64,000 nt of DNA. It comes from Narcine bancroftii. Its lineage: Eukaryota. The stretch lies in the NCBI RefSeq assembly GCF_036971445.1, contig NC_091471.1:235910001-235974000 (forward strand). Direction: 5' to 3'. The notes under the pieces are model-generated. The model saw nothing but the letters and a program-made list of their open reading frames with translations. It ran no database searches and was not told the DNA's origin. Below, in pieces: positions 7,736-60,684 of the stretch (positions within the stretch are counted from its first letter, which is position 1; each line of letters opens with the position of its first letter). The position numbers and the translations under genes are program-made.

Positions 7736-8395
7736 GACACGTGGGATTCCAACTTTATTGCTATTAGTGAGACTTGGTTGCAGGAGGGGCAGGACTCAAT
7801 GTTCAATGCTCAATGTTCCGGGGTTCTGTTGTTTTGACATGAGGAAGGAAGGGAGAGGAGTGGCATTGCTCGTTAGGGAAAATATCACAGCTGTGCTCAG
7901 GCAGGGCAGCCCAGAGGGCTCATCTACTGAGGTGTGATCACACTCATGGGGTTGTAATGCGTGTCAAAAGAACCAAAGACTTGTTGATCCAAACCAAGGC
8001 TTTTATTAACTAAAAGACTGGAGCATATCACAAGTAGGTCGACCAGTCCAGAATGACTTGGTCTGGCTAGGAGCAATCCTTTAAGACCTGCCAGTAGGTG
8101 TGGCTACACTCTCAGCCAATCACAGCCTACACTACCATCTGTATATATACACATTGGTGATAGAATCTGTACTATCACACCGTCTAATAGTCAGAGAGAA
8201 TTGGAGGGGCAAATCTGTAGGGAGATAACAGACCGATGTAAGAAGCAGATTTTAACTTTCCACATATTAACTGGGACTGCCATACTGTAAGAGGGCTGGA
8301 TGTGTTCAGGAAAGTTTTCTAAATCAATATATAGAGGTTTTAACAAGACAGGACAGATGACAGAAGTATGTGTAGGGGAACATTTTGGGGCCATT
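7736..8395 (+). mobile_element. CR1 endonuclease-region fragment interrupted by a solo LTR
   Basis: IAISETWLQEGQD..NVPG and GVALLVRENITAV before the LTR; NSQRELEGQICREI and DW after it. Confidence 0.7.
7953..8179 (-). mobile_element. Solo LTR of the Gypsy family found at 55987-60684
   Basis: Its reverse complement aligns end to end with 55987-56217 and has TG..CA termini. Confidence 0.92.
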
Positions 8396-10284: not shown

Positions 10285-10329
10285 CGAGAGGAAAAATGAC
10301 CACGAACTATATGTATGTGTATATATATA

Positions 10330-12023: not shown

Positions 12024-12495
12024 TATATATATATGTGTGTGTGTGTGTGTATGTATATTTGTGTGTACATGAGTGTATCCGTATTTAAAAGAAAATATAT
12101 AGAGTATAGATAAGAATGAATAAGGGAAAGAAAGGGAAGAGAGGAAGTAAGGAGGGAATTAAGAGAGTGACCTTTGTTGTATATGAAAATTAAAATCTTT
12201 TCTCTGGGGGCTGGGTGGGGAGGAGTTACGGTCACTGCGAAATCAGTTGACACTTGCGAGTGAATTCGCAAATCCAAATGGAGAAGGTAGATGTGGTTGC
12301 CCGACAAGGGATAAAGAGCAACTCAGGAAGGGGAGGGGATAGTGGGGTTAAAGAAATTTTAGATAGGAGAATAAGGGAAATGTTTGATGTTTTAGAAATG
12401 TTGTCTTATAAAGTGTTCAAAACAAGAAAGCAGAAATGGATAAGAAGGAAAGGTGATGATGACGAAACGGAAAGGGAAGATAAACAAAGTATGAA

Positions 12496-27407: not shown

Positions 27408-30400
27408 TACAGCACTTTTTCCCAGCGAAGAGTAACTTTCAGACCAGAAGGATGCGAGACTGCACGCCAAGTGGAGGATGTATTATCAACGTCTTTAGTT
27501 CGTGGGTTAGCTTGTTTAATGCGTTGTATGTGAGTCCACCCCTTTTCTTTTGTTCGCACTGCAGTGTCTGTAATCAGAAGTACACAATAAGGGCCGTCCC
27601 ATATCGGTTTTAGTTTATGGTCTTGCCACGCTTTTACATATACCCAATCACCAGGTTTAACAGAATGAATAGGATAGTCCAGGGGTGGGTTTTGAGCTAA
27701 TAAACCCTTCTGTCGTAAATCATACAGAGAAGTAGAATGTCCCTGCAAATATTTAGATATGTACTGGTCATTAGCCTCAGGGATAGGGGTATCAGTGTGG
27801 AATCCCATGTAAGGAAGACCAAACATCATTTCATATGGTGAGACAGCAAGGTCTTTACGAGGAGCTGTGCGAGTCCTAATTAAAGCTAAGGGTAAGCATT
27901 TAATCCAGGAGAGGCCAGTTTCCTCATGAAGTTGAGTGAGTTGATTTTTCAGGGTCTAATTCATCCGTTCAACACGGCCTGAACTCTGGGGGAGCCATGG
28001 GGTATGTAACTGCCAATCTATTCCCAGAATTTTACACACACCCTGGAGTACCTGAGAGGTAAAATGTGTACCTCGATCTGAGTCATGGTTTGAATAATGC
28101 CATAGCGTGGAATAACAGACGCTAGTAATATCCGGATAACGGTGCTAGCACGATCATTAGGGGTCAGGAAAGCCTCAACCCATCGAGTAAAATGATCCAC
28201 CATCACCAGGAGGTATTTATAAACCCCCATCTTAGGTAATTCCGTGAAGTCAATCAGTAGCCTGTGTTCCCCAATGTGTCTGCTGGTGGAGCTGATCAAT
28301 AATCTAACGAGCCAAGGCTTTGTTCAGTACTTGGCGTCCCTCTGCCGTCCACCACAACCCATCGGCAGTTTGACGCATTCCCTGGTCTTTCATATAAACC
28401 TCCTCCTCCCGTGAAGATGGGAGTCTTTTTAACCTCATGTGGGGTGGGGAGTAACAGCTGCATGTCTATTTTTTCTGTGAGTGCAGCCTGTTTGGCAGCT
28501 TCATCTGCCCGTCTGTTCGCCTGTGCTTCAGGACTGTCAATAATTTGATGGCCCCGTACATGAACTACAGCTATCTCCTCAGGTAACATAAGAGCATCTA
28601 AGGATTGAACAATTAAGTTTTCATGGATCAACTTTTGTCCTTTCCCAGTTATCATTCCCCGCTCTTTCCAAATCTTTCCAAAGGTATGCACTACACCAAA
28701 AGCATACTTTGAGTCGGTATAGATTGTGCCCACCTTTCCCTCTAAACCCTGGAGAGCTCTACAGAGGGCATAAAATTCGCAGGATTGTGCCGACCAATGA
28801 CCGGGAAGAAGACCGGCTTCAATCACAACTCCTTCATTCCCATCCACTATACTATACCTGCTATAATGAATGCCGTCAATGCAGCGGGAAGATCCATCAA
28901 TAAACCATCTTTCACCCTCCCGTAAAGGTTCATCACTTAAATCATCTCTAATTTTTGTCTGTAAATCGATCACTTCTAAACATACATGCTCTAAATCATT
29001 GGGGACAGTATCAGAATCTGGAGAAACCAAGAAGGCGGCTGAATTCTGTTCTTTGTTCATAATCAGTGTCAAATCAGCCCTATCCATGAGAATCGCTTCA
29101 CACTTTAACATTCTAGAATCAGTAAGCCACCTTCCGGCACGTTGTAAGAGAATGCTGCGGACTGTGTGAGGGGTATGAACTAACGTCGGGGCACCAAACA
29201 TAATCTTTCATCCTTCTTTGACTAAAATAGCAGTGGCTGCAATTGCTTGCACACATTCTGGCCAACCACGACAAACGGGATCTAAAATTTTTGACAGAAA
29301 GGCAACTGGTTGTCTAAAGCCTGCCCTCTCTTGCGTTAATACTCCTATGGCCACACCATCTTTCGCATTGGTATATAGGTCAAATGGCTTATTTAGGTTG
29401 GGTAAAGCCAAAACTGGGGCACTAATAAAACGCTGTTTCACCAAGGTAAAATCTTTAATCTCCTCCTCCGTCCAGACAACAGTTTCACCCCCTAGAGTCG
29501 CAAGTTTATCATAAAGAAATTTGACCAGGCTAGAATAATTCTCAATCCAAATTCTACAGTATCCCACTAAACCAAGGAATTTTCTAAGTTCTCGAGCACT
29601 CTTTGGAGGCGGGATCTGCAGAATACCGTGTGTTCTCTCTGGACTTATCTTCCTAATTCCTTGACTAACCAGATGACCTAAGTATTTAACTTCAGATTGA
29701 ACAAATTGTAACTTTGATTCGCTCACTCTAAGACCCTTATTCCCTAGAAAATTCAGAAATTTAACAGTGTATTGTTTAACCACATCATACGTTTTTCCCG
29801 TGATTAATAAATCATCAACATATTGTATTAATTGACAATTCTCTCTCCGAGGGGCCTCATCTAGTACCTGTTCTAAAACTTGGCCAAACAAATTTGGGGA
29901 TTCTGTAAAACCCTGGGGAAGGACTGTCCACCGGTATTGATTTTTCCGTCCTGTAAAAGGATTCTCCCATTCAAATGCAAACATGTCCCTATTGTCTATT
30001 GCCAATGGACAGGTCCAGAAGGCATCTTTCAGGTCAATTACACTAAACCACTTACTATGGGGATCAATTTTACCCATTATCGTATAAGGGTTAGGTACGA
30101 CCGGATAACGGGTGAGAATGATTTTGTTTAACTCCCTCAAATCCTGCACTAATCGATAGGTACCATCTGGTTTTTGGACAGGTAAAATTAGGGTATTAAA
30201 AGGTGACATACAAGGGTCGAGTATACCATCTTTCACCAATTGGTCAATTACTGGTTGCAGCCCCTTTCGGCCAGCCATAGGAATTGGATACTGTTTTCGT
30301 CTAATTACTTGGTCAGGGTTTTTAAAGTAACTTGCAGGGGAGGAACATCTAACCCTCCTCTATTGCCTCTTTTTGCCCATACTCCAGGATTTATTAGTTC

Positions 30401-30806
30401 CCGATCCTCCTCTGTTAGTACATAAAATTGAACCCCGATACCTGATCCCTGTGGTCTGGTACCGATAGCCAATTGGTCTTGAAAATGTCATCCCAGCAGG
30501 CAAACTCCAGCTTGGGGAACTAGTAAAATATCCTCTGTTATTATCTTTTCTCCCATTTCTCCCATTCTTTAGTATAGGGACCATAAAATCTCTTCCTCCC
30601 ACTCCCAAAATTATCACTGTCCCTTCTGTTTTAACACCCTCGGGCCGTTGTAAAATACTAGACCGGGCTGCCCCAGAATCTACTAAAAAAGTCATCTCGT
30701 CACCGTGGGGTCCTATGCTTAAATTTACCAATGGTTCTCCGTGCAGCCCCACGGTGTGTATTGACTGAGAACCGTGACCCCCCCATTCATAATCTGCCTC
30801 CATCAA
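27407..30806 (-). pseudogene. pol: ERV pro-pol (protease, RT, RNase H, integrase), frameshifted
   Basis: FLVDSGA; LPQGF, QYVDDLL; FIDGSS, YTDSKYAF; IDFTELP..VDHFTRWVEAF; WDGPY. Confidence 0.94.
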
Positions 30807-30815
30807 TGCATAAGA

Positions 30816-32450
30816 TCACGTCTCCCTGGCTTGCATTGGGCATTCCCTCTTAAAGTGTCCCTCCTTTTTGCAATAATAGCAAACTAATGCTCCTGTTTCC
30901 CAATTTCTACCAGGGTCTCCACGGGGTCCCAGGGATGGTCGTCGTCCCCGGAATTCTCCTCTACCCCTGCCTCTGCTCTGGTCTCTACTTCCCCACCCCT
31001 GGCGCTCCTCCCAACGTCCAGGAGCTGGCACACAGCTCCTAACATTTCCCTGCTGTCCCTCCACAACCTCCTTGACTGCCTGCATCCACATCTTAGCCTT
31101 TCCTTTCTGTTGATCTTCAGACCTCTGGACGTATGCCCTTTGTGCGATCTGTAAAAGCTGTGTTATTCCCTGTTCATGCCAATTCTCTGTCTTTTGTAAT
31201 TTCTTCCTGATATCTGGGGCTGAATTAGTAACAAAGCCCATCAATACCAACTGTTCACCTGCTGGGGATCCTATATCCAACCCCCCATATTGCTGTATGG
31301 CCGCACGCAATCTATTCAGAAATGCAGAGGGGGGTCTCCTTGGGACCTTGGGGAACCTCAAATGCCTTCTTAAAGTTCTGTCCTTTTGAACAGACTCCTT
31401 CATTCCTTTGATTAGATTAACCCTGTACTCATCCATTTGCATGCGGCCTTCATTAGTAGTCTTATCCCAATTTGGGTTCGCCAGGGGAAATTTAGCTTCT
31501 CCAGGTATCGCCTCTGGTCCCCCTTGGTGTTCCCTATCCAAGACTCTAATCCCTGCCTGGCGAATCATTCCACGCTCATCCAAAGTAAACAGAGTCTTAA
31601 AGATAGACATGAATTCATCCCAGGTATATATATTAGGTCCCAAAAATTGATCTAATTGTTCTGCACATCCCTGAGGGTCTTCTATCAGAGAGGTCATTTC
31701 CTTCTTAAAATTGCGCACCTCCGTACTGGTCAGAGGCACATTTACGAACCCGATACCCCCCATATTCCCTCCCAAGGGAACCTCTCGTAACGGTCTCATC
31801 CAGTTAATTTCTGGCTTATCCCCTCCTCTATGATGTTCTGAATGACCCTCATAACCAAAGTCTCCTCCCTCTCGTGTCAATTGAGGCGGTAATCTTGTAC
31901 TCTGTGAGCGGGTCATCATTCCACCCCTACTTTCTTTTTCTTTCTCTAACTGTGGAGGAAGAGGGGAAGGTGAAAAAGGGTAAAGTGTAGGTGAGAGGGG
32001 GAAGATAGGAGCTGGCACAGGTGGAACATAAGGTGGAGGAAGGGAATGTAACACATCCCATCCTTGTGTTTCAGGGACAAAAGGTTCCTCATCCTTCTTG
32101 TTCTTACATCCCTTTTCGCTCAAAATCATTTGATCAAACGATCCACTGAGCCAACAGGCTGCATATTCTCTGCTCTCGGTATTACCTCCTTGATTTTAGT
32201 AGAGCCAGACGTTTAATGCCTGACACATCCAGTCCTTGTCGGATCCGAACTTTGGCCAATATACCGAACTCCCTTTTATCGGATTCTTAACCCATTCCTG
32301 ATAGCAATACCTGACCATGGTCTGTTTATCTTTCCCACGGGTTTTCCCCATACCCCAATCAGATAACATTAATCCTAAAGGACTATGTTTAGGTATCTGA
32401 TCTTCCCATCCTTCTCCAGGACTGTTTCCCTTGCTACTTACTCCTCCCAT
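30816..32450 (-). pseudogene. gag: ERV gag (MA-CA-NC) with one internal stop
   Basis: MGGVSS myristoylation-type start, SPLG..L..W, PPPY late-domain motif, SAPDIRKKLQK, CYYCKKEGHFKREC knuckle; TAA at 32196-32198. Confidence 0.92.
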
Positions 32451-33299
32451 ACTAGCAGGTAAATAAATTCCTCTTACCGGGATCCAGTAGCTATTCCTAG
32501 CGTGCTTCCTTAATGTCCTCCTGTCTTTTGTTTTCAATGCCTCTTCTCGGATATCACTCGCTTCATCCACTGACCAGTCACCCGTAGTCTGTGAGTCCAG
32601 CTGAATCAGCCGGGGTGCACCTACCCACGTCGTCGGGCACTCTGTCAGTGGAGGGAGTGGGATCCCGGACGAGCCCCCATTTGTGAGAAACAGATGTACC
32701 TTCACAGAAATTGCTCGAGACAAAAATTGAGAACAAAGAACATTTATTGTACAACAGTGCAAAGTTGGGTGCTTCCCCTTACCATGGGAATACACACACA
32801 TACTGGGGCTCATCTAACTTTTATACAGTTCATTTCAGTGTAGAGATAACCCCTCCCCCCCCCCCACCTTTAACATTCTGCCTCCTGGATTGGTTTGGCA
32901 TTTGGTAATTCTGTCTGCCTACGTGTAAACTTGAAAGACAATGGGGTATCCTGTCTGGGTCCCATCATGTCATTGTCCTTATTCATGAATCTACCTTTGT
33001 TCTTATTCAAACATCTCAACCCCCAGGAGTTACTAATTCTATATGCAGAATTTGCTAATTCTTTCTATCACTATAAGACCTTTCTTCTATTATATTTGCG
33101 TAACCCTTCCTCACACTCTTATCGGAATTCATCCCTATTCAGCACTTACTTAACTTCCTCTAGTCTAGTCTATTATTCTTTATTTCATTCATACTAACTT
33201 TACTTCCTATAATCTATTATCTCTCACAATGGGAAGGAGTTGTGAACATGGCAGTGCTGCTGGAACCAGCTGGAACAACAGCATTTCTGCTGGTGCGGA

Positions 33300-43968: not shown

Positions 43969-44629
43969 GTCAGCCAGGGTCAAAGGGCAGGGGTGGCAGG
44001 GTCAAAGAGGAACGAGTGGGGTCAAGGGGCCTGAGAGCAGGGTCAAAGGGGAGGGTCATGGGAGGTCAGGGTCATAGAGGAAAAGGCATTGGGGTAGCAG
44101 GTCAAAGGGGATGGGATGGTAGGAATACATGGTCAGGGGACAGTGGAAGGTCAAAGGTGAGAGATTATTGAGACACAGTCCATGGAGACACGGGGTTAAA
44201 GAGGGTGGATGGCTCACAAAGCTTGAGAGTCGAAGGGCGACAGTGTGAAAGGGGAGGGGACAAAGGGCAGACCACAAAAGAGGGTCAAGGGGGGAGTGTT
44301 CATTAGGGAGAGGGTCAAAGTGGTTGGAGGCGAAGGTTAAGGATGGGTGAACAGTCAAAGGGCAGGGGGTGAGGTTTCAGAGAATGAGGTCAAGAGGCAG
44401 AATTGGGAAGAACATGGGCCAATGGACCGAGGATTGGGGTTCAGGGGAACAGGAGTAGGAGAGGCATAAAAGGGTGATTGGATAAAGGGGAACATGGTCG
44501 GGTAGCAGAAGATGGGAAATGGGAGAGATGATAGGGGAGCTGAATTGTTTTGGTGAATATGGAATTATTGCCTCGCTCCTTCCCCACTCTCTCTCTCTCT
44601 CTCTCCTCCTCCCCCTCCCCTCTCTCCTC

Positions 44630-45425
44630 CCCCCCCGCTCTCCTCCCCCCCGCTCTCCTTCCCCCCCGCTCTCCTTTCCCCCCGCTCTCCTTCCGCCTGC
44701 TCTCCTTCCCCCCGCTCTCCTCCCCCCCGCTCTCCTCCCCCCCGCTCTCCTCCCCCGCTCTCCTCCCCCCGCTCTCCTCCCCCCCGCTCTCCTCTCCCCC
44801 CGCTCTCCTCTCCCCCCGCTCTCCTCTCCCCCCGCTCTCCTCTCCCCCCGCTCTCCTCTCCCCCCGCTCTCCTCTCCCCCCGCTCTCCTCTCCCCCCGCT
44901 CTCCTCTCCCCCCGCTCTCCTCTCCCCCCGCTCTCCTCTCCCCCCGCTCTCCTCTCCCCCCGCTCTCCTCTCCCCCGCTCTCCTCTCCCCCGCTCTCCTC
45001 TCCCCCCGCTCTCCTCTCCCCCCGCTCTCCTCTCCCCCGCTCTCCTCTCCCCCGCTCTCCTCTCCCCCCGCTCTCCTCTCCCCCGCTCTCCTCTCCCCCC
45101 GCTCTCCTCTCCCCCCGCTCTCCTCTCCCCCCGCTCTCCTCTCCCCCCGCTCTCCTCTCCCCCCGCTCTCCTCTCCCCCCGCTCTCCTCTCCCCCCGCTC
45201 TCCTCTCCCCCGCTCTCCTCTCCCCCGCTCTCCTCTCCCCCCGCTCTCCTCTCCCCCCGCTCTCCTCTCCCCCCGCTCTCCTCTCCCCCCGCTCTCCTCT
45301 CCCCCCGCTCTCCTCTCCCCCCGCTCTCCTCTCCCCCCGCTCTCCTCTCCCCCCGCTCTCCTCTCCCCCCGCTCTCCTCTCCCCCCGCTCTCCTCTCCCC
45401 CCGCTCTCCTCCCCCCCCGCTCTCC
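44630..45425. repeat. 16-bp C-rich minisatellite (CGCTCTCCTCTCCCCC)n
   Basis: Directly visible homogeneous array. Confidence 0.97.
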
Positions 45426-45509
45426 TTCCCCCCTGCTCTCTCTCATTCCCCCTCTTTTTCCATCCCCTCCTTCTCCCCACTTCTCTCCCTTCCCCCCTCT
45501 CTCCCACAG

Positions 45510-45937
45510 AGACTCCGGCACCCACTGATCTGCTCAGCACACTTTCGGCCGGGGAGCCAGTCACGGCGCAGACGCTGCCGTCCATTTTTGCCGAGACCCC
45601 CTTGGAGCCGCCCGAGGAGATGGTGGAGGAGCCAACGGCGTCAGGGTCAGAGCCCGGAGGGGCCGAAGGGGAGGGGGCACGGGGTCGGATCGGGGATCTC
45701 GTCCTGGCGGCTGAGCTGATGGAGATGGTGAATGAGACAGTGCAGCACGTGCAGAAGGAGGCGCACTTCGAGGAGGCGTTTGGGCACGACCACGGGGCCT
45801 ACGTGCTGCCTGACGACCCGGCCATCCTGACAAAGATGGTGAAGGAGATGCAGGAAACGGTGCACGCGCAGAGCTGGCGACTGTCAGTGTTGCAGCACGA
45901 GCTGGCATCCACGCTAGCGCTGTACAAGGAGCTGAAG
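45510..45937 (+). CDS. THAP-like gene exon 2 (AVPTIF-like box, acidic linker, HBM-like motif, coiled coil)
   Basis: Acceptor CTCTCCCACAG. TLPSIF; DHGAY; ILTKMVKEMQETVHAQSWRLSVLQHELASTLALYKELK. Phase-0 donor AAG/GTCAGC. Confidence 0.75.
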
Positions 45938-46019
45938 GTCAGCATGAGGACCCGCCCACTTCCCACCCCTGCTCCTCCCACCTTCCGACCCCAACCCTCC
46001 TCCCCCCACAGCTCCGCCA

Positions 46020-46280
46020 GCCCCGACCCCCGATCCTCCCGACCCCCGATCCTCCCGACCCCGATCCTCCCGACCCCCGATCCTCCCGACCCCCGATCCT
46101 CCCGACCCCCGATCCTCCCGACCCCGATCCTCCCGACCCCCGATCCTCCCGACCCCCGATCCTCCCGACCCCCCACTCTCCCGACCCCCCACCCTCCCGA
46201 CCCCCCACCCTCCCGACCCCCCACCCTCCCGACCCCCCACCCTCCCGACCCCCCACCCTCCCGACCCCCCACCCTCCCGT
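46020..46280. repeat. 16-bp minisatellite (CCCGACCCCCGATCCT)n
   Basis: Directly visible. Confidence 0.95.
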
Positions 46281-46476
46281 ACCACTCAACTCCTGTCCTG
46301 TGCTACCATGCTCCTCCAGTCCCACGCATCTCCCATCCCGCACTCCTCCCGACATGCGCTCCTCTTCTCACGCTCCTCTCTTTTCGCGCTCTTCCCGTCC
46401 CCGACTCCTCCCGTCCACCGCACCTCCCATCCCCCGCTCCTCTACATCTCTCGACTCGGCTCCTCTACTCATACAG

Positions 46477-47985
46477 ACCCTCGCCCCTCTACAACTCCTG
46501 TCCCTCGCCCCTCTACAACCCCTGTCCCTCGCCCCTCTACAACCCTGTCCCTCGCCCTTCTACAACCCCTGTCCCTCGCCCCTCTACAACCCCTGTCCCT
46601 CGCCCCTCTACAGCTCCTGTCCCTCGCCCCTCTACAGCTCCTGTCCCTCGCCCCTCTACAGCTCCTGTCCCTCGCCCCCTCTACAACTCCTGTCCCTCGC
46701 CCCTCTACAACTCCTGTCCCTCGCCCCTCTACAACTCCTGTCCCTCGCCCCTCTACAACTCCTGTCCCTCGCCCCTCTACAACTCCTGTCCCTCGCCCCT
46801 CTACAAGCCCTAACCCTCGCCCCTCTACAACCCCTGTCCCTCGCCCCTCTACAACCCCTGTCCCTCGCCCCTCTACAACCCCTGTCCCTCGCCCCTCTAC
46901 AACCCCTGTCCCTCGCCCCTCTACAACCCCTGTCCCTCGCCCCTCTACAACCCCTGTCCCTCGCCCCTCTACAACCCCTGTCCCTCGCCCCTCTACAGCT
47001 CCTGTCCCTCGCCCCTCTACAACTCCTGTCCCTCGCCCCTCTACAACTCCTATCCCTCGCCCCTCTACAACTCCTGTCCCTCGCCCCTCTACAACTCCTG
47101 TCCCTCGCCCCTCTACAACTCCTGTCCCTCGCCCCTCTACAACTCCTGTCCCTCGCCCCTCTACAACTCCTGTCCCTCGCCCCTCTACAAGCCCTAACCC
47201 TCGCCCCTCTACAACCCCTGTCCCTCGCCCCTCTACAACCCCTGTCCCTCGCCCCTCTACAACTCGTCCCTCGCCCCTCTACAACCCCCGTCCCTCGCCC
47301 CTCTACAACCCCCGTCCCTCGCCCATCTACAACCCCCGTCCCTCGCCCCTCTACAACCCCCGTCCCTCGCCCCTCTACAACCCCCGTCCCTCGCCCCTCT
47401 ACAACCCCCGTCCCTCGCCCCTCTACAACCCCTGTCCCTCGCCCTCTACAACCCCTGTCCCTCGCCCCTCTACAACTCCTGTCCCTCGCCCTCTACAACC
47501 CCTGTCCCTCGCCCCTCTACAACCCCTGTCCCTCGCCCCTCTACAACCCCTGTCCTCGCCCCTCTACAACCCCTGTCCCTCGCCCCTCTACAACCCCTGT
47601 CCCTCGCCCCTCTACAACCCCTGTCCCTCGCCCCTCTACAACCCCTGTCCCTCGCCCCTCTACAACCCCTGTCCCTCGCCCCTCTACAACCCCTGTCCCT
47701 CGCCCCTCTACAACCCCTGTCCCTCGCCCCTCTACAACCCCTGTCCCTCGCCCCTCTACAACCCCTGTCCCTCGCCCCTCTACAACCCCTGTCCCTCGCC
47801 CCTCTACAACCCCTGTCCTCGCCCCTCTACAACCCCTGTCCCTCGCCCCTCTACAACCCCTGTCCCTCGCCCCTCTACAACCCCTGTCCCTCGCCCCTCT
47901 ACAACCCCTGTCCCTCGCCCCTCTACAACCCCTGTCCCTCGCCCCTCTACAACCCCTGTCCCTCGCCCCTCTACAACCCCTGTCC
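46477..47985. repeat. 24-bp minisatellite (CCCTCGCCCCTCTACAACCCCTGT)n
   Basis: About 60 near-identical units. Confidence 0.97.
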
Positions 47986-48284
47986 CCCGCCCCCCCCCAG
48001 CCCCCGTCCCCCACCCCCCCCCAGCCCCCGTCCCCCGCCCCCCCCCAGCCCCGTCCCCCGCCCCCCCCAAGCCCCCGTCCCCCGCCCCTCCCCAGCCCCC
48101 GTCCCCCACACCCTCTCTCCTCCCCATCCACTGCTTACTCTTCCTCTCACCCCTTTCTGTGCTCCCACCATCTCCCCTCAACCCCCATTGCACCCTCTAT
48201 TCCCATCTCTGGTGAGCAGAATGAGAAATAAACCCAGATTCCACCTCTCCATCTCTGCCCCTCTCTCACCTCCTCATCCCCTTT

Positions 48285-50000
48285 CTCTCCCGTCCCCATC
48301 TCTCTCTCTCCCGTCCCCATCTCTCTCCCATCCCCATCTCTCTCTCCCGTCCCCATCTCTCTCTCCGTCCCATCTCTCTCTCTCCCGTCCCCATCTCTCT
48401 CTCTCTCCCGTCCCCATCTCTCTCTCTCTCCCGTCCCCATCTCTCTCTCTCTCCCGTCCCCATCTCTCTCTCTCTCCCGTCCCCATCTCTCTCTCTCTCC
48501 CGTCCCCATCTCTCTCTCTCTCCCGTCCCCCCATCTCTCTCTCTCTCTCCCGTCCCCATCTCTCTCTCTCTCCGTCCCCATCTCTCTCTCTCTCCCGTCC
48601 CCATCTCTCTCTCTCTCCCGTCCCCATCTCTCTCTCTCTCCCGTCCCCATCTCTCTCTCTCTCCCGTCCCCATCTCTCTCTCTCTCCCGTCCCCATCTCT
48701 CTCTCTCTCCCGTCCCCATCTCTCTCTCTCCCGTCCCCATCTCTCTCTCTCCCGTCCCATCTCTCTCTCTCTCCGTCCCCATCTCTCTCTCCCGTCCCCA
48801 TCTCTCTCTCTCTCCCCGTCCCCATCTCTCTCTCTCTCCCGTCCCCATCTCTCTCTCTCCCGTCCCCATCTCTCTCTCTCTCCCGTCCCCATCTCTCTCT
48901 CTCTCCCGTCCCCATCTCTCTCTCTCCCGTCCCCATCTCTCTCTCTCCCGTCCCATCTCTCTCTCTCCCGTCCCCATCTCTCTCTCTCCCGTCCCATCTC
49001 TCTCTCTCCCGTCCCATCTCTCTCTCTCCCGTCCCCATCTCTCTCTCTCCCGTCCCCATCTCTCTCTCTCCCGTCCCCATCTCTCTCTCTCCCGTCCCCA
49101 TCTCTCTCTCTCCCGTCCCCATCTCTCTCTCTCCCGTCCCCATCTCTCTCTCTCCCGTCCCCATCTCTCTCTCTCCCGTCCCCATCTCTCTCTCTCCCGT
49201 CCCCATCTCTCTCTCTCCCGTCCCCATCTCTCTCTCTCCCGTCACAATCTCTCTCCCGTCCCCATCTCTCTCTTCCCGTCCCCATCTCTCTCTCTCTCCC
49301 GTCCCCATCTCTCTCTCTCTCCCGTCCCCATCTCTCTCTCTCTCCCGTCCCCATCTCTCTCTCTCTCCCGTCCCCATCTCTCTCTCTCTCCCGTCCCCAT
49401 CTCTCTCTCTCTCCCGTCCCCATCTCTCTCTCTCTCCCGTCCCCATCTCTCTCTCTCTCCCGTCCCCATCTCTCTCTCTCCCGTCCATCTCTCTCTCTCC
49501 CGTCCCCATCTCTCTCTCTCTCCCGTCCCCATCTCTCTCTCTCCCTCCCCATCTCTCTCTCTCTCCCGTCCCCATCTCTCTCTCTCTCCCGTCCCATCTC
49601 TCTCTCTCTCCCGTCCCCATCTCTCTCTCTCTCCCGTCCCCATCTCTCTCTCTCCCGTCCCATCTCTCTCTCTCCCGTCCCCATCTCTCTCTCTCCCGTC
49701 CCCATCTCTCTCTCTCTCCCGTCCCCATCTCTCTCTCTCTCCCGTCCCCATCTCTCTCTCTCTCCCGTCCCCATCTCTCTCTCTCCCGTCCCCATCTCTC
49801 TCTCTCTCCCGTCCCATCTCTCTCTCTCTCCCGTCCCCATCTCTCTCTCTCCCGTCCCATCTCTCTCTCTCCGTCCCCATCTCTCTCTCTCCCGTCCCAT
49901 CTCTCTCTCTCTCCCGTCCCCATCTCTCTCTCTCCCGTCCCCATCTCTCTCTCTCCAATCCCCATCTCTCTCTCTCCCATCCCCATCTCTCTCTCCCGTC
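48285..50000. repeat. ~21-23-bp minisatellite (CCCGTCCCCATCTCTCTCTCT)n
   Basis: Directly visible; CT tract length varies between units. Confidence 0.97.
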
Positions 50001-50157
50001 CCCCCTCTCTTTCCCCCCCTCCAATCCCCTGTCCCTCCCTCTCTCCCCCATCCCCCTTTCTCCCCTCCTGTCCCCACCATGCTATCCCCCTCCATTCCCC
50101 CCCCCCCTCATGGTCCCCCCCCGCTCTCTCTCTCCTCCCCCCACCCCCCATGTCCAG

Positions 50158-50223
50158 GAACGTTATGAGAAAGAGCGTAGCACCCTGTCCCTGGAACTGA
50201 CCTCGCAGGTCAGTGAGCTGCGA
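50158..50223 (+). CDS. THAP-like gene exon 3 (coiled coil); ends at 50208 or runs into the gap
   Basis: Acceptor CCCATGTCCAG in phase 0; ERYEKERSTLSLELTSQ(VSELR). Confidence 0.6.
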
Positions 50224-50423
50224 NNNNNNNNNNNNNNNNNNNNNNNNNNNNNNNNNNNNNNNNNNNNNNNNNNNNNNNNNNNNNNNNNNNNNNNNNNNNN
50301 NNNNNNNNNNNNNNNNNNNNNNNNNNNNNNNNNNNNNNNNNNNNNNNNNNNNNNNNNNNNNNNNNNNNNNNNNNNNNNNNNNNNNNNNNNNNNNNNNNNN
50401 NNNNNNNNNNNNNNNNNNNNNNN
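50224..50423. other. Assembly gap
   Basis: Run of N. Confidence 1.
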
Positions 50424-53400
50424 TCCCATTCTCTAAAGGAAAGGTTATCTATTGTAAAAGGAAGTAACTGATTTTGCGTCATTATTAGTTTTGGTAATTG
50501 GTAATTTGTTTTATTCCTTTCTACATGAATCTTCTTCCAAATATTGAGCAGATGATGTAATACTGGAGAACTCCTATGTTGTACCAATTTTTCATCCCAT
50601 TTATATAATATGTGTTCAGGTATGTTTTCCCCTATTTTATCTAGTTCTAATCTAGTCCAATCTGGCTTTTCCCTTGTTTGGTAAAAATCTGATAGGTATC
50701 TTAATTGTGCGGCTCTATAATAATTTTTAAAGTTTGGCAGTTGTAAGCCTCCTTGTTTATACCATTCTGTTAATTTATCTAGTGCTATCCTCGGTTTCCC
50801 CCCTTTCCATAAAAATTTCCTTATTATTTTCTTTAACTCCTTGAAGAATTTCTCTGTCAAGTGTATTGGCAATGCCTGAAAGAGGTATAGTATCCTTGGG
50901 AAAATGTTCATTTTAATACAGTTTATCCTTCCTATTAGTGTTAGTGGTAAATCTTTCCAATGCTCTAAATCGCCCTGTAATTTTTTCATCAGTGGATAAT
51001 AATTGAGTTTATTTAGATGGCCGGGATTTTTATTTATTTGTATACCTAGGTATCTTATTGCTTGCATTTGCCATCTGAATGGTGATTCTTTCTTAAATTT
51101 TGAGAAATCCGCATTATTCATTGGCATTGCTTCACTTTTATTTACGTTAATCTTGTAACCCGACACTTCTCCATATTCCTTCAATTTCTTATGTAATTCT
51201 TTTATTGATAGTTCTGGTTCTGTTAAGTATACTATAACGTCATCTGCAAATAAACTGATTTTATATTCCTTGTCTTTTATTTTTATCCCTTTTATTTTAT
51301 TTTCTGTTCTTATCAATTCTGCTAGTGGTTCTATAGCTAACGCGAACAATAAGGGTGATAGTGCCTTGTTGATCTGCTTAAGTTAAATTGCTTTGATAAA
51401 TATACATTTACTGTCACTTTCGCCAATGGCCCCTTATATAATGCTTTAATCCAATTAATATACTTCTCTGGTAAACTGAATTTTTGCAATACTTTGAATA
51501 AATAATTCCATTCTACTCTGTCAAAGGCCTTCTCTGCATCTAAAGCAACTGCTACTGTTGGCGCTTTACCTCCTTCTACTGCATGAATTAAGTTAATAAA
51601 TTTACAAATATTGTCTGTTGTTCGTCTTTTTTTAATAAATCCAGTTTGGTCTAGATTTACTATTTTTGGTACATAGTCGGCTAATCTGTTTGCTAATAGT
51701 TTAGCTATTATCTTATAATCTGTGTTAAGTAACGATATTGGTCTATATAACGCTGGTGCGAGTGGATCTTTCCCTTGCTTTGGTATTACTGTAATTATTG
51801 CTGTTTTACATGAATCTGGTAAGCTTTGTGTTTTGTCAATCTGGTTGATTACTTCCAGGAGGGGAGGAATTAATAAATCTCTAAATGTTTTATAGAATTC
51901 TATTGGGAATCCATCCTCTCCTGGTGTTTTATTATTCGATAGTTTTTTTTATTATCTCTTGTATTTCTACTATTTCAAATGGTTCTGTTAATTTATTTTG
52001 TTCCTCTATTTGTATATTTGGTAGTTCAATTTTAGTTAAAAATTCATCTATTTTGCCTTCTTTCCCTTCGTTTTCAGTTGGTATAATTGTTCACAGAATT
52101 CTCTAAAGTTTTCATTGATCTCCGTTGGATTATATGTGATTTGTTTGTCTTTTTTCCTTGATGCCAATACCATTTTCTTAGCTTGTTCTGTCTTAAGCTG
52201 CCATGCTAGAATTTTGTGCGTTTTTTCACCTAGTTCATAATATTTCTGTTTTGTCTTCATTATGTTCTTCTCCACCTTATATGTTTGTAGTGTTTCATAT
52301 TTTATTTTTTTATCTGCCAATTCTCTTCTTTTAGTTGTATCTTCCTTCATTGCTAATTCTTTTTCTATATTTATTATTTCCCTTTCCAACTGCTCTGTTT
52401 CCTGATTATAGTCCTTCTTCATCTTGGTTACATAACTTTTTATTTGCCCTCTGATGAACGCTTTCATTGCATCCCATAGTATAAACTTATCTTTCACTGA
52501 TTCCGTATTTATTTCAAAGTACATTTTAATTTGTCTTTCAATGAATTCTCTAAAATCCTGCCTTTTAAGTAGCATGGAGTTTAATCTCCATCTATACATT
52601 CTTGGAGGGATGTCCTCTAACTTTATTGTCAATATTATGGGTGAATGGTCCGATAATATTCTAGCTTTATATTCTGTTTTTCTTACTCTATCCTGCATAC
52701 GAGCTGATAACAAAAATAGGTCTATTCTTGAGTATATTTTATGTCTAGCCGAGTAATATGAATATTCCTTTTCATTTGTGTGTTGTTTCCTCCATATATC
52801 CAAAAGTTGCATTTCTAGCATCGATTTAATTATAAATTTTGGTTACTTTGTTCTTTCTGTTAATTTTTTTACCAGTTTTATCCATATTTGAATCCAAATT
52901 AAGGTTGAAATCCCCTCCTATTAATATGTTCCCTTGCGTATCTGCTATCTTCAAAACAATATCTTGCATAAAGTTTTGATCTTCTTCGTTAGGTGAATAT
53001 ACATTGAGTAGATTCCAAAACTCCGAATATATCTGACATTTTATCATTACATATCTCACTGCTGGATCTATTATTTCCTCTTCTATTTTAATTGGTACAT
53101 TTTTACTGATTAATATAGCTACTCCTCTTGCTTTTGAATTATACGACGCTGCTGTTACATGTCCTACCCAATCTCTCTTTAATTTCTTGTGCTCCAATTC
53201 AGTTAAATGTGTTTCTTGCACAAATGCTATGTCAATTTTTTCTTTTTTCAGTAAATTTAGCAGTTTCTTCCTTTTAATTTGGTTATGTATTCCGTTAATA
53301 TTTAAAGTCATATAGTTCAGCGTAGCCATTTTATACTTTGTTTATCTTCCCTTTCTGTTTCTCCATCATCACCTTTCCTTCTTATCCATTTCTGCTTTCT

Positions 53401-53739
53401 TGTTTTGAACACTTTATAAGACAACATTTCTAAAACATCAAACATTTTCCTTATTCTCCTATTTAAAACTTCTTTAACCTCATTCTCCCCTCCCCCTCCT
53501 GAGTTGCCCTTTATCCCTTGTTGGGCAACCACATCTCCCCTCTCCATTTGGATTTGCGAATTCACTCGCAAACGTCAACTGATTTTGCAGTGACCGTAAC
53601 TCCTCCCCACCCAGCCCCCCCTGGAAAAGATTTCAATTTTCATATATAACAAAGGTCACTCTTTTAATTCCCTCCTTATTCCCTCTATTCCCTTTCATTC
53701 CCTTATTAATTCTTATCTATACTCTATATATTTTCCTCT

Positions 53740-53890
53740 NNNNNNNNNNNNNNNNNNNNNNNNNNNNNNNNNNNNNNNNNNNNNNNNNNNNNNNNNNNNN
53801 NNNNNNNNNNNNNNNNNNNNNNNNNNNNNNNNNNNNNNNNNNNNNNNNNNNNNNNNNNNNNNNNNNNNNNNNNNNNNNNNNNNNNNNNNN
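53740..53890. other. Assembly gap at the microsatellite/RTE 3' junction
   Basis: Run of N. Confidence 1.
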
Positions 53891-54395
53891 GCGGACGAAG
53901 ATTTATGGAGGGGGTAAAAGTCCACGTCAGCTGCAGGCTCGTTTGTGGCTGACAAGTCTGATGCGGGACAGGCAGACACGGTTGCAGCGGCTGCAGGGGA
54001 AAATTGGTTGGTTGGGGTTGGCTGTTGGGTTTTTCCTCCTTTTCCTTTTGTCAGTGAGGTGGGCTCTGCGGTCTTCTTCAAAGGAGGTTGCTGCCCGCCA
54101 AACTGTGAGGCGCCAAGATACACGGTTTGAGGCGATATCAGCCCACTGGCGGTGGTCAATGTGGCAGGCACCAAGAGATTTCTTTAGGCAGTCCTTGTAC
54201 CTTTTCTTTGGTGCACCTCTGTCACGGTGGCCAGTGGAGAGCTCGCCATATAACACGATCTTGGGAAGGCGATGGTCCTCCATTCTGGAGACGTGACCCA
54301 CCCAGCGCAGCTGGATCTTCAGCAGCGTGGACTCGATGCTGTCGACCTCTGCCATCTCGAGTACTTCGACGTTAGGGATGAAAGCGCTCCAATGG
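53891..54395 (-). mobile_element. Short 5'-truncated RTE of the same family as 10330-12023
   Basis: Near-identical to 11502-12008 (HWSAFIPNVEVLEMAEVDSIES...SHKRACS). Confidence 0.95.
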
Positions 54396-55986
54396 AAGCA
54401 TGAAAATTTGCAGAACAACTACAAAACAAGCAGAGAGATGAAGACATGTAATGAGAGTAAAAATGACCACGAACTATATGTGTGTGTGTGTATATGGGTA
54501 TATATATATATATATATATAAATTTTCGTGCTTCCTCTGGATCCGAGAATAGTCTGTTTTGTTGCCCTGGAATAACTATTTTAAGTACTGCTGGGTACTT
54601 TAGCATAAATTTATACCCTTTTTTCCATAGGATTGTTTTTGCTGTATTAAACTCCTTCCTCTTCTTCAGGAGTTCTAAACTTATGTCTGGATAGAAAAAA
54701 ATTTTTTGACCTTTGTATTCCAGTGGCTTTTTGTCTTCTCTTATTTTCTTCATTGCTTTCTCCAATATATTTTCTCTTGTTGTATATCTTAAGAATTTTA
54801 CTAAAATGGATCTTGGTTTTTGCTGCGGTTGTGGTTTCAGGGCTAATGTTCTATGTGCCCTCTCTATTTCCATTTCTTCCTGTAATTCTGGTCTTCCTAG
54901 GACCCTGGGGATCCAATCTTTTATAAATTCTTTCATATTCTTGCCTTCTTCCTCTTCGTTAAGTCCCACTATCTTTATATTATTTCTTCTATTATAGTTT
55001 TCCATTATATCTATCTTCTGAGCTAACAGCTCTTGTGTCTCTTTAACTTTTTTATTAGATTCTTCTAATTTCTCTTTTAAGTCCTCTACTTCCATTTCTA
55101 CGATTGTTTCTCGTTCTTCCACATTGTCCACTCTTTTTCCTATCTCTGATATGACCATTTCTATTTTATTCATTTTTTCTTCTGCACTCTTAATTCTTCT
55201 TTTTATCCCATTAAATTCTTGTAATTGCCATTCTTTCACTGATTCCATATATTCTTTAAAAAAAGATATATCCATTATCTTGCCTTTCTCTTCTTCTTCC
55301 ATTTCTTTCTGTTCTTCTTCTTCTTCCTCTGAGTTGACCATATGTTGTTTCCTTGTTTTCTTTTTACCCTCTTCTTTTTTGTTGTCGTTATTTTCTCTGT
55401 TCTGCACCTGTTGCTGTGTTGCAGGTGTCTCTCTCAGCTGTGGAGATCGACTCCGCAGCTGTTCCCCCCTCCCGTCAGTGTATTTTTTTCATGCGAGGAG
55501 TCGCGCATGCGCGGTTGCGCACTTTTACTCGGCTCCTCGAGCCATTTTTGTTGTCCCGAGCTCGGGACTTCCACTGACCTGTTGGAGCGGGCTTCTCTCT
55601 CCGCGGCGGGCCTCCTCGGACAGGTAAGGCCTTCACCTTCTTCCTCCGACGGTCTTTCTTCTTCTCTTCTTCCCATTGTTTTCGACTTTTCTCTCCGCTG
55701 CCATTTTCTTCTCACCTTTATTTTTACTTTGTTTTAATTTTTACTCTTGTACCTTTGTGTTTTGTGCATTTTTTTTTTAACTTTTCCGGAGAGGGCTGGA
55801 ATTCCCTGACCGGCCACTACTCCATCACGTGACTGACTACTCCCGAAGCAGCGGAGGTTGAATGGGTCATGGCTCTAAAGGTTATCATTACTGACAGGTG
55901 AAGGTGGAGTCGATCCCCCACTGCTGCACAAATGCTCTTGGCGTGAGCCTCAAACAGCTTCTGACAACAACGACTTGATCCAGTTT

Positions 55987-58900
55987 TGTGATAGTACAGA
56001 TTCTATCACCAATGTGTATATGTACAGATGGTAGTGCAAGATGACTGTGATTGGCTGAGAGTGTAGCCATACCTACTGGCAGGTCTTAAAGGATTGCTCC
56101 TTGCCAGACCAGGTCATTCTGGACTGGTCGACCTACTTGTGATATGTTCCAGTCTTTTAGTTAATAAAAGCCTTGGTTTGGATCATCAAGTCTTTGGTTC
56201 TTTCGACGTGCATTACAATTTTATTAACTAAAAAATTTTGAAGGGATTAAGCGTATGCTACAGCTGGAACACCTCGATATCGACCTAACGTCAGCGTCGA
56301 ATTACTTTAAGCATTGGGTGAGATGCTTTGAAACATACTTACAGCTCTCTGATCCTGCCATGATAGAGGACAGCCATCGACTACTAATATTGATGACTAT
56401 GGTGTCCCCGAGAGTCTACCAGAGTGTCCAGGATGCGACCACTTACACCGCAGCCATAAAAGTGTTGAAAGGGCTCTACGAGCGACCGGTGAACAGGGTC
56501 TATGCTGGTACAAACTTGCTACAAGGAGGCAACAGCCTGGTGAGTCCTGCAGAGCTTATATTCGGGCAGTAAGGGCAATGGGCAGGGACTATGCCTGCAC
56601 AGACAGAAATGCTGCGGAGACCACAGACGATCTGATTCAGGATGCCTATGTGGCCGGGGTTTGATCAAATGAGGTGAGGCAGTGCCTGCTAAAGCACAGG
56701 GGAGAAAACCTAGAGGACGTGATCCGGATCACAGAGATGATGGAGGCTGCGGTCTTAAGTATGGACGTGTACTCTCGGGGCTGGACCCCACACTCTGATG
56801 TAAGTAGGATGCCCTCCCTCTACCCTACTACCTACACTACGCTGCCTGATGCAACCCCAAAGTGTTATTTCTGCAGGAGGAACAAGCATAGCAGGTCCCA
56901 GTGCCCGCTGAGAAAAGCCAGGTGCCATAAAAATAGCCACTTTGCTGTAGTCTGTCGCTCCAAAATGGCCACTGTCAAACACAGTGCCTCGTGTGAAGCC
57001 CAATCACCACTCTCCATTTCAAACACTTCTTCCTCAGAGCTCTCATCCAATGAGAGCGAGGACTCCACCGCGCGGCAGCGCCTGACGTAACGGGGCAGAC
57101 ACCAAGCGGTACAAGAAGGTACAACCCACCCTTGCCACAATGACGTTCACCCTACCTCACGAAGCAACGTCTGACCAGGCCCCAGCCCTGATCTCAGCAC
57201 CCGCTGCCGACCAGGGACCCGCCACTGCTGCCAACCAGGGACTTGTCGCCGCTGCTGACCCAAGGACCCGCCGCTGACCAGGGACATGCTGCCGTCGCCA
57301 CCGCTGACCGTGGACACGCTGACACTGCCGACCGGGGACCCGACGCTGCCAACCAAGGGCCCCCCACTGCTGATTGCCCCACCACCGATGGCAAGCAGCA
57401 ACCCCCGACACTTACCGTTGGCTGCAGGCAGCAACACCAACTCCCCAACACTTTTTTCAGGCCCAACTGTTTGCGTGATGTCATCGCGCATACGTTTCGT
57501 GACATCATCATGCAGGACTCCACTGTCCCCATTACAAGTCTCTGCATCAATAACCCTCCACCAGGACTTCCCATCCCCTCACAAAAGCAATGGAACTGAT
57601 TAAAGTGCATAGACACTATACCAATTGCTTATTTGACTCAGGGTCAACTGACAGTTTTATCCGCCTAGACCTGGCCCACCGTTGTGGACTAGCTATTCTC
57701 CCCACTGCACAGAGAATTTAATTGGCAACCAGATTGCACTTGACTGGGGTAAAGGGGTACTGCGTGGCGACCTTGAAAGTCCAGGGCATCACATTCACAG
57801 ACTTCAAACTATTAGTCCTTCCCCAATTGTGTGCCCCTGCTCTGCTGGGACTGGATTTTCAGTGCCAGTTTCAAACCATTTCCCTGCACTTTGGGGGGCC
57901 TCATGCTCCACTCTCTGTCTGTAACCACTCCACCCCGGAAACCTCTTGCCAGCGGCAACCCAAGCCACCTGCCCCGGGGCCTCCCCTGTAGTCTCTCCAC
58001 CCTCCGAGTTGCTCCGCCAACGCTTTTCGCAAATCTCACCCCTGGCTGGAAGCCTGTGCCACCAAAAGCTGGCAATATAGTTATGAACCTAGCTCGAGGC
58101 CATTGAAGGCCCAGGCAGTGGTTGTTAAAAATGGGGAGAAGCCACGGATGGTGGTTAACTACAGCCAGACAATCAACTGCTTCACGCTCCTGGATGCATA
58201 CCCACTTCCACGGATCACAGATGTGGTGAATCAGATCGCCCAATACTGTGTATTTTCCACCATTGGCTTACGTTCGACCTATCATCAGTTCCCGATCTGC
58301 TGAGAAGACCGAACTTTCACGGCCTTCGAAGCGAATGGGCGGATGTATCAATTCCTCAGGGTACCCTTTGGGGGTCACAAATGGCGTCGCGGTCTTCCAG
58401 CGGGAAATGGACTGGATGGTGGACCAGAACAGGCTAACAGCTACTTTCCCGTATCTGGACAACGTCACCATCTGCGGCCATGACACGGAGGATCATGATG
58501 CCAATCTTGAGAAATTTTTTCAGACAGCAACTCGGCTGAACTTGACCTACAATTTCGACAAGTGTGTCTTCCGGACCACACAGCTCGCAATTCTGGGCTG
58601 CGTGGTGGAGAATGGGGTGGTCATGCCGGACCCTGACCGCATGCGTCCCCTCACGGACCTGCCACACCCCCACCCCAGAAGGCACTCACTGCCTGAGTTT
58701 TTTCTCTTACTATGCCCAATGCGTTCCACAGTATGTCAACAAGGCACGACCACTTATCAAGACCACCTCCTTCCCCCTGTCAACCGAAGCCAGAGCGGCC
58801 TTCGACCGCATCAAATTGGACATCATTGCTGCTACGCTGCACGCCATCGACAAGTCCATTCCATTCCAAGTCGAAAGCAATGCATCTGACTTTGCACTGG

Positions 58901-60684
58901 CAGCCACTTTGAACCAGGCCGTCCGGCTGGTAACCTTTTTCTCCAGAACCCTCCAGTGTTGAGAGCCGACATTTCTCTGTTGAGAAGGAGGCCCAGACCA
59001 TAGTTGAAGCAGTATGTCATTGGAGACACTACCTCACAGGCAGGCGCTTTACGCTGCTGACTGACCAATACGCGGTCTCCTTCATGTTTAGCAATACCCA
59101 GCGAGGTAAGATCAAGAATGACAAAATCACCAGGTGGAGAATCAAGCTCTCCACCTTTAATTATGACATACTGTATCGGCCAGGTAAACTCAATGACCCA
59201 CCAGATGCGCTCTCCAGGGGGACTTGCACCAATGTACAACTGGACAGGCTGTAGAAACTCCACGAGGAGCTCTGTCATCCAGGGGTCACTAGGTTCGTGC
59301 ACTTTGTCAAAGCTCGCAACCTGCCCTACATGGTCGAGGAGACTTGCTCCATGAGCCGACCCTGCCCAGTGGTGTACTGAGTGCAAGCTCCGCTTCTTCC
59401 GTCTGGAGAACACCCATGTCATCAAAGACACCCGCCCCTTTGAGCGTCTCAGCGTAGACTTCAAGGGACCCCTACTGTTGACCAACCGTAACACCTACAT
59501 CCTTACGGCCATTGACAAGTACTCCCACTTCCCGTTCGCTGTGCCCTGCTCGGACATGACTGCCTCCTCAGTTATAGAGGCCCTGCACAGCATCTTTGCC
59601 ATCTTCGGGTACCCCAGTTACATCCACAGTGACAGGAGGTGCTCATTTATGAGCACAGAGCTGCGGCAGTACCTTCTGGAGTGTGGTATTGCTTCAAGCA
59701 GGACCACCACATATAACCCACGCGGTAATGGGCAAGTCGAAAGAGAGAATGCCACCATCTGGAAAGTGATTACGCTTGTCCTCTGGTCCAAAGGTCTCCC
59801 CACTTCTCACTGACAGGATGTGCTCACTAGTGCTATGCACTCCATCCGCTCCCTCCTATGCACCACGACCAATGCCATCACCCCCCCATGAAAGGATGTT
59901 CTCTTTCCCGAGGAAATCCGAGTCGGGTACGACCATACCAGCATGGCTCACGGTTCCCGGTCCAGTCCTCTTACGACGCCACGTCCAGTACTCAAAAATG
60001 ACCCCTTGGTTGACCGAGTGACTCTGCTCCATGGGAACCCGCATTATGCCTACTTTGAGTACCTGGACGGATGGGAGGACACAGTCTCAGTAAGGGACTG
60101 AGCTTAAGCCGGATCAGGCACAGCAGTGCCTTTAACCCAACCTCCACCAGGTCACGTGCTTGAACAGAGGAACCAGCACCATCCCACCAGCTCAGGCCCC
60201 CTATTCCTTCTCCCCCAGGTCATGTGCTTGAACAGAGAGACCAGCACCATCTCAGGCCAGTCTGTCGACAACGCCATTGGGGAATTGAGCGAAGTAGTGG
60301 CCGCACCCTACGGGCCTGCTGGCGACATGACTCCGGCGACCCCAATTCTGGCACCACGGCAGTCACGCCGGATGGTCAGGCCCCCTGACCGGTACAGCCC
60401 CTAACCTCCATCCACCCTGGGGACGGTTCTCAAAGAAGGAGTGAATGTGATAGTACAGATTCTATCACCAATGTGTATATGTACATATGTACAGATGGTA
60501 GTGTAGGATGACTGTGATTGGCTGAGAGTGTAGCCACACCTATTGGCAGGTCTTAAAGGGTTGCTCCTAGCCAGACCAGGTCATTCTGAACTGGTCGACC
60601 TACTTGTGATATGGTCCAATCTTTTAGTTAATAAAAGCCTTGGTTTGGATCAACAAGTCTTTGGTTCTTTCGACGCGCACTACA
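55987..60684 (+). mobile_element. Ty3/Gypsy LTR retrotransposon with two LTRs, defective
   Basis: LTRs at 55987-56217 and 60446-60684; PPT AAAGAAGGAGTGAA. Gag with a CYFC..H...C knuckle, protease LFDSGS, RT (DAYPLP, YLDN), RNase H (NASD), integrase (HSD..GNGQVER). Flanks AGTTT/AGTAT. Confidence 0.95.

Follow-up and report, generated by a model that had tools for sequence, protein, structure and literature searches.

The window, a stretch of 64,000 nucleotides from the genome of the cartilaginous fish Narcine bancroftii, contains a Ty3/Gypsy element in which the position of the primer-binding site (56219-56233) is occupied by the exact reverse complement of a segment of its own LTR (56155-56169), with no extension of the match on either side. 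The two arms change together among copies in this genome, and related elements from other organisms carry the same arrangement. As judged from sequence comparison, this self-complement signature is real and clade-wide, and it probably has a function. Self-priming of some kind is very likely on this evidence. More specifically, it appears rather likely that the segment in the 5' R, after a predicted cut behind AATAAAA, primes the minus strand in cis, and in predicted folds the same helix would mask the poly(A) signal at the 5' LTR.

The Element and Its Surroundings

The element spans 55987-60684 on the plus strand and is a decayed copy of an abundant Ty3/Gypsy family. The features expected of this group are present, namely LTRs bounded by TG...CA, a target duplication, a polypurine tract and the domain order protease, RT, RNase H and integrase. 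The features of the element and of a solo LTR are as follows:

55987..56217, plus strand: 5' LTR, TG...CA, 231 nt
56085..56091, plus strand: TATA-like element, 31 nt upstream of the predicted start, putative function
56114..56119, plus strand: initiator-like TCATTC; its A at 56116 is the predicted transcript start
56155..56169, plus strand: R-internal segment complementary to the primer site, ending on AATAAAA; candidate self-primer 3' end
56163..56168, plus strand: AATAAA poly(A) signal within the paired segment
56184..56185, plus strand: poly(A) site GATC/A, the R-U5 border, mapped by alignment from subfamily B copies
56190..56203, plus strand: GU-rich element downstream of the poly(A) site
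56219..56233, plus strand: candidate primer-binding site, complementary to 56155-56169 and separated from the LTR by 1 nt
56255..60404, plus strand: gag-pol in a single, broken frame (Gag with zinc knuckle, protease, RT, RNase H, integrase)
60432..60445, plus strand: polypurine tract
60446..60684, plus strand: 3' LTR, 239 nt, with the 15-mer also at 60622
7953..8179, minus strand: solo LTR (227 nt) belonging to the same family, with the 15-mer at 8001

The two LTRs differ by 12 substitutions over 231 aligned sites and by an 8-nt indel, and the flanks AGTTT and AGTAT form a 5-bp target duplication with one mismatch. The open reading frame of this copy is interrupted by stops and frameshifts, and its RT motif YLDN lies at 58452-58463. 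The flanks of the solo LTR do not match each other as a target duplication. From the preliminary description, the solo LTR and the end of the 5' LTR were retained, while the start of the 5' LTR at 55987 and the 3' LTR at 60446-60684 were set here.

Both the 5' end of the element with its flank and the RT stretch are 100% identical to a locus about 748 kb away (L002, G000:C8:235218020), which represents either a segmental duplication or an assembly duplicate. Further repeats are found in the window. An ERV-like provirus, interrupted by in-frame stops, lies at about 26900-33000 on the minus strand and displays Gag p30 with a zinc knuckle (30819-32195), RT (29211-30359), RNase H (28299-29207) and an MLV-type integrase C-terminus (27410-27955). 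A long inverted pair of LINE type with RT and endonuclease domains occupies about 8940-15370 (plus strand) and 50420-55830 (minus strand); its parts are mostly 87-98% complementary and 35-47 kb apart. Several tandem arrays with units of 16, 23 and 24 nt are located at 44560-50200.

Complementarity at the Primer Site

The complement starts behind a spacer of 1 nt (56218), which follows the terminal CA of the LTR (56217). Within the window, copies of the 15-mer are confined to the 5' LTR, the 3' LTR and the solo LTR, and its complement to 56219. Directly after the 5' LTR, the TGG of a tRNA-type site is absent, and the longest complement to the sites among 27 host tRNA sequences, a partial set covering 13 anticodon classes, is 4 nt. 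In 10,000 dinucleotide-shuffled versions of the LTR, complementarity never exceeded 11 nt, and a complement of at least 15 nt to the LTR was seen at 7 of 8,872 window positions, the primer site included. The self-complement is beyond chance by these measures. What had been described initially at this site held throughout: there is no tRNA-type site, the 15-nt self-complement is exact, the 15-mer is unchanged in the other two LTRs, and the distance to the LTR end is that of a primer.

Covariation in Narcine bancroftii

The family is very abundant in the genome, with 2,982 DNA candidates and 36,644 RT candidates, of which 40 and 150, respectively, were scored. One of the best 30 loci of family A, to which the window copy belongs, is an identical duplicate of it, leaving 29 for comparison. 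In these loci, which were ranked by likeness to a query holding both arms, all 15 positions pair in 19 of 29 copies and at least 14 in 28 of 29, if G-U pairs are allowed.

Subfamily B is younger; many of its LTR pairs are identical, its target duplications measure 5 bp, and one single frame encodes 1419 amino acids. A substitution and an indel of one base set its LTR segment apart, and both are mirrored in its primer site. Among the 19 of 20 loci that could be scored, 14/14 pairs are formed in 15 and 13/14 in four. An unbiased test was provided by a third LTR variant, for which the variant letter was fixed in the search pattern and the partner base was left free. This pattern gave 145 matches, and by hand count the partner among the 100 listed was G in 92, A in seven and T in one; in family A, the base at this position is A. 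The covariation of the arms, for which the preliminary description had proposed to test, is thereby borne out, both by the compensated changes in subfamily B and by the partner base following in 92 of the 100 listed copies. It shows pairing or templating of the two arms, and does not tell which copy of R primes.

Other families of this genome with unrelated LTRs repeat the arrangement. In a pattern search, 23 of 30 loci carried AATAAAA as the anchor, and of the 7 letters that come next in these, mostly 5-6 match; this pattern prescribed the first 7 letters of the site and excluded A from the 8th, a bias that forced a mismatch in some families, and it was used to find families only. In controls with TGG-type sites from the same genome, the self-match of the LTR reaches only 3-6 nt.

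Elements of subfamily B range from about 4.67 to 5.15 kb in length, and a variable-length Ala/Thr tandem repeat is located between Gag and protease (residues ~315-395 of the L046 ORF).

The Signature in Other Organisms

The closest protein to the unbroken 1419-aa relative stems from Narcine bancroftii itself (99%), followed by proteins of other rays and sharks (73-80%) and by those of a sea anemone, a nematode and many environmental samples (57-65%). No relative of the element was found in the viral contigs searched. From metagenome and MAG contigs, 77 loci were collected; the Gag N-terminus was located in 40 of them, and 36 held enough upstream DNA. The counts for these 36 loci are based on a profile-anchored scan. 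Nine loci of the clade (L128-L136) are animal-type Gypsy elements in bacterial MAG records, where they likely represent eukaryotic contamination.

An exact complement of 11-19 nt, one base after the CA, is present in 25 of the 36 loci, compared to 8 of 1,562 random anchors. Of the 11 loci missed at the 11-nt bar, four appear to be damaged members of positive families, one reaches 10 nt, and three from a single family have 11 pairs including one G-U, as judged by eye; L080, L099 and L100 are left without explanation.

In the 22 positive representatives, the site matches its own LTR over a mean of 14.3 nt and foreign LTRs over 5.3 nt, and the foreign matches of at least 11 nt (8 of 462) all occur between close relatives. 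The letters of the site differ from family to family, and no single host RNA can therefore explain it. The segment ends on TAAA or TAAAA in 21 of 22 families and is directly followed by RCC in 18, while AATAAA or ATTAAA lies within it in only 14. Although the segment is located 23-86 nt upstream of the LTR end, all 22 families have the end of the helix at a distance of 1 nt from the LTR. The gag ATG follows at 15-49 nt from the start of the site.

Transcript Start and Poly(A) Site

The TATA-like element at 56085 and the initiator at 56114-56119 had led to the prediction of a transcript start at 56116 before any retrocopy was considered as evidence. In sister families, TATAAA is located 73-85 nt upstream of the segment end. 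Searching for copies with a tail yielded three, in which the A-run begins at GATC/A or three bases later. In these three genomic copies, all of subfamily B, the A-tail lies 16-19 nt behind AATAAA. Read from these tails, the three copies show a working poly(A) site near 56184.

One subfamily B copy, L264, is a LINE-type retrocopy consisting of R and a tail only, flanked by a 17-bp target duplication. Its 5' end has one extra G, possibly a copied cap, followed by the initiator A that is equivalent to 56116. For this single retrocopy, the chance that a random 5' truncation falls within one base of the predicted start is about 0.016. From L264 it is evident that an LTR gave rise to a polyadenylated RNA consisting of R only. 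In window coordinates, R would extend from 56116 to about 56184. The start at 56116 is provisional, being suggested by motifs and this one subfamily B retrocopy. The start near 56155 that the preliminary description had expected for self-priming is not supported; with a start at 56116, the paired segment is internal in R, beginning about 39 nt inside, and does not form the 5' end of the RNA.

Two further copies, L262 and L263 (~1315-1535), run from the TG of U3 to an A-tail at the poly(A) site and contain neither U5 nor internal sequence; they have no convincing target duplication.

Predicted RNA Structure and Masking

Folding from the start at 56116 predicts the helix with pair probabilities mostly above 0.9, and with one fixed spacer base the mean helix probability exceeds 0.7 in 22 of 22 families. 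The duplex of the window family itself is weak (-11.6 kcal/mol). In these folds, the probability of AAUAAA being unpaired is 0.01-0.03 at the 5' LTR vs. 0.57-1.0 at the 3' LTR. The suggestion that the signal is suppressed at the 5' LTR only is thus consistent with the predicted folds, which bury it there and leave it open at the 3' LTR.

In retroviral leader hairpins, AAUAAA at the 5' LTR is likewise buried in a helix. Here, in contrast, the primer site itself serves as the partner arm and is located outside the LTR; masking would therefore be specific to the 5' end automatically.

A stem of 3-6 bp right behind the segment is predicted in many non-ray families (combined p 2.7e-4, with families that are not independent); in the four ray families examined, it does not exceed chance. 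The folds contained no duplex downstream of the site and no consistent third duplex, and the Rfam search gave miRNA matches only, all below threshold.

Proposed Mechanism and Alternatives

In the favored model, the RNA would start at 56116 and be polyadenylated near 56184, as suggested by the motifs, the one retrocopy and the three tailed copies. Its R segment 56155-56169 would pair with 56219-56233, in line with the covariation and the predicted fold. A nuclease, by analogy with Tf1 presumably the RNase H of the element, would cut between 56169 and 56170 and free a capped fragment of about 54 nt, the last 15 nt of which would be paired. From this end, the RT would copy 56218 to 56170, and homology of about 15 nt would let the resulting strong-stop DNA of about 49 nt move to the 3' R. 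During plus-strand synthesis, the site would be rewritten from the primer, as in Tf1, and the arms would thereby stay matched. The 3' LTR and solo LTRs, which are without the partner arm, are predicted to leave AATAAA open.

The most serious competitor, although an unlikely one, is self-priming by another copy of R, either the 3' R of genomic RNA or a short R-only transcript of a solo LTR; the annealed RNA would be cut, or be trimmed from the poly(A) tail back to the end of the duplex. The covariation is blind to the copy of R involved, and tailed R-only RNA has existed, as L264 demonstrates. Moreover, the segment always lies about 15 nt or little more from the 3' end of the RNA, so that an identical primer end would result if the RNA were trimmed to the duplex. 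However, just 48 nt separate the 5' segment from the site, which it is predicted to occupy during synthesis of the leader with a probability mostly above 0.9, and the RCC behind the segment in 18 of 22 families suits a defined cut.

It is improbable that the helix only masks the 5' poly(A) signal, or regulates translation from the nearby ATG, and that an unrelated RNA or protein primes. The overlap with a working poly(A) signal and the gag ATG at 15-49 nt would fit such a role, but masking does not need a helix that ends exactly 1 nt from the LTR, as it does in every family. Furthermore, the 8 of 22 segments without a canonical hexamer still pair, and no other primer site is visible.

Priming by a host tRNA or tRNA fragment, with an incidental LTR match, is very improbable. 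Half-tRNA priming is known in Copia lineages according to excerpts of PMC6317226, and the set compared (27 sequences of 13 anticodon classes) is partial; nevertheless, the best complement is 4 nt, and the site varies from family to family in step with the LTR of each. An origin by chance, or by a single inverted duplication within A+T-rich DNA, is negligible, as the covariation refutes it together with the shuffles and nulls, even if the two arms have a high A+T content and are each partly self-complementary.

Returning to priming by the 5' R in cis, a wider reading is put forward tentatively and with somewhat less than even confidence. A large and animal-wide Gypsy clade outside the chromoviruses would have evolved self-priming separately, with a primer cut from the middle of R and ending on the poly(A) hexamer; one helix would license priming and silence the 5' signal, and the distance from signal to tail would guarantee the homology for transfer.

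Lineage and the Question of a Separate Origin

In RT and RT-RH-IN trees, the clade stands on a long stem (SH-aLRT 99-100) apart from the chromodomain-bearing, Mag-type, CsRn1-type, Gmr1-type and arthropod groups; Mag, CsRn1 and Gmr1 each form a group of their own. The labels Mag and Gmr1 are our assumption, the former taken from site motif and protein likeness, the latter from site motif and domain order. One locus chosen as Mag-type, L241, grouped with the CsRn1-type by its RT, and L253 was left out of the trees because its RH and IN hits lie upstream of its RT. The CsRn1 site of this analysis agrees with that in the excerpted PMC2582038.

With a wider sample, 13 diverse chromodomain-bearing proteins form one group (SH-aLRT 100) that does not include this clade, which has a stem of 0.88 and an SH-aLRT of 100. 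These chromovirus references were chosen by Pfam and are distinct from the named Tf1, Maggy and sushi-ichi sequences. All trees are quick ones with SH-aLRT support only, and the wider-sample tree was built under LG+G4 without a mixture model. A sister relation to the Mag-type reached an SH-aLRT of 88 in one RT-RH-IN tree and had no support in three other trees.

Pfam scans of the open pieces of the window copy and of the unbroken 1419-aa relative revealed no chromodomain, in agreement with the initial reading; PF00385 and PF24626 are absent from the unbroken relative as well as from the domain lists of the 120 homologues listed. A search with SH3_Tf2-1 gave mostly integrase-first (Gmr1-type) elements, and the chromoviruses of the genome are few and decayed. 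The element is not a member of Tf1/sushi, as it is without a chromodomain and outside the 13 sampled chromoviruses. Placement inside that clade, which had been considered earlier, was not found in the RT and RT-RH-IN trees. The YLDN motif, proposed as a hint to the lineage, is indeed present but common and not diagnostic, occurring in 74 of the 120 homologues listed, with YxDD in 21. The clade lies outside the 13 chromoviruses, but a sister relation to chromoviruses was not rejected by the AU test (p 0.24 for RT, 0.44 for RT-RH-IN, 0.27 for the wider sample). A separate origin is thus unproven.

Comparison with Known Systems

Tf1 has been shown to prime itself, and the same is predicted for chromoviruses and for one lineage of Copia. 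According to excerpts of the respective reports, the Tf1 primer consists of the RNA's first 11 bases, cut by RNase H (PMC7175516), within a pretzel structure of three duplexes, and the Tf1/sushi elements belong to the chromoviruses (PMC10085805); Tj1 is self-primed as well (PMC4600332), the primer site is copied into the cDNA end (PMC11042837), and Skipper is treated in PMC5006619. Tf1, Tf2, Tj1 and the Tf1/sushi group share with the element studied here the lack of a tRNA site and a site adjoining the 5' LTR with complementarity to their own LTR. In the Tf1 group, the 3' end has to be released by a cut, as proposed here. In contrast, the primer in Tf1 has 11 nt and sits at the 5' end of the RNA, whereas here it would have 11-19 nt and lie, provisionally, about 39 nt inside; furthermore, unlike in Tf1/sushi, the segment ends on the poly(A) signal.

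Self-priming was also predicted for Tcn1 and for Copia TAR (Houba, Osr-1), by a complement to the LTR of at least 10 nt that starts 0-5 nt after the LTR (PMC6317226, in excerpt). The clade described here has such a complement as well, and in Copia TAR self-priming outside the chromoviruses had, as far as the excerpt goes, been predicted once before. Tcn1 and TAR, however, are plant or fungal lineages, and the excerpt of PMC6317226 mentions no overlap with a poly(A) signal. Compared by partial descriptions, Saci2 is characterized by duplications of 4 bp and, in Gag, a CCCH motif (PMC12471100, PMC2582038), in contrast to the 5-bp duplication and CCHC knuckle found here. The main texts of two surveys of animal Gypsy clades (PMC6238403, PMC8556966) mention no primer-binding site, and a literature search, with most subscription journals and Repbase Reports outside its scope, returned no account of priming in this clade. 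What would distinguish the present case, as far as sequences tell, is a candidate primer that is internal in R and ends on the poly(A) signal, in an animal lineage outside the chromoviruses.

If a widespread clade of animal Gypsy elements used a primer from within R, tRNA-free priming would reach well past the group in which it has been known. This bears on whether hairpin priming is recurrent or, as the excerpted PMC3601003 considers possible, ancestral. One helix would couple two problems of LTR elements, namely priming and the suppression of the 5' poly(A) signal. Control by tRNA fragments would not reach such elements, and they are overlooked by annotation tools for which a tRNA site is obligatory. 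The clade is young and very abundant in the genome of N. bancroftii, and the mapped positions of start, cut and poly(A) site are exact predictions.

Elements of the Mag-type share a compact single ORF of about 4-5 kb, a 5-bp duplication and a primer site 1 nt after the LTR with the present family. In contrast to the latter, they have their own TGG-initiated site and an LTR complement of only 3-4 nt. In Gmr1-type elements with integrase before RT (L138-L157, L259, L260), the LTR is followed by TAATT and then by a TGG-like run, which represents an unusually long offset. One Mag-type element with an unbroken frame (L233, 1010-5152) is 79% identical in RT-RH to sea-urchin proteins, a likeness that is unexpectedly close for such distant hosts.
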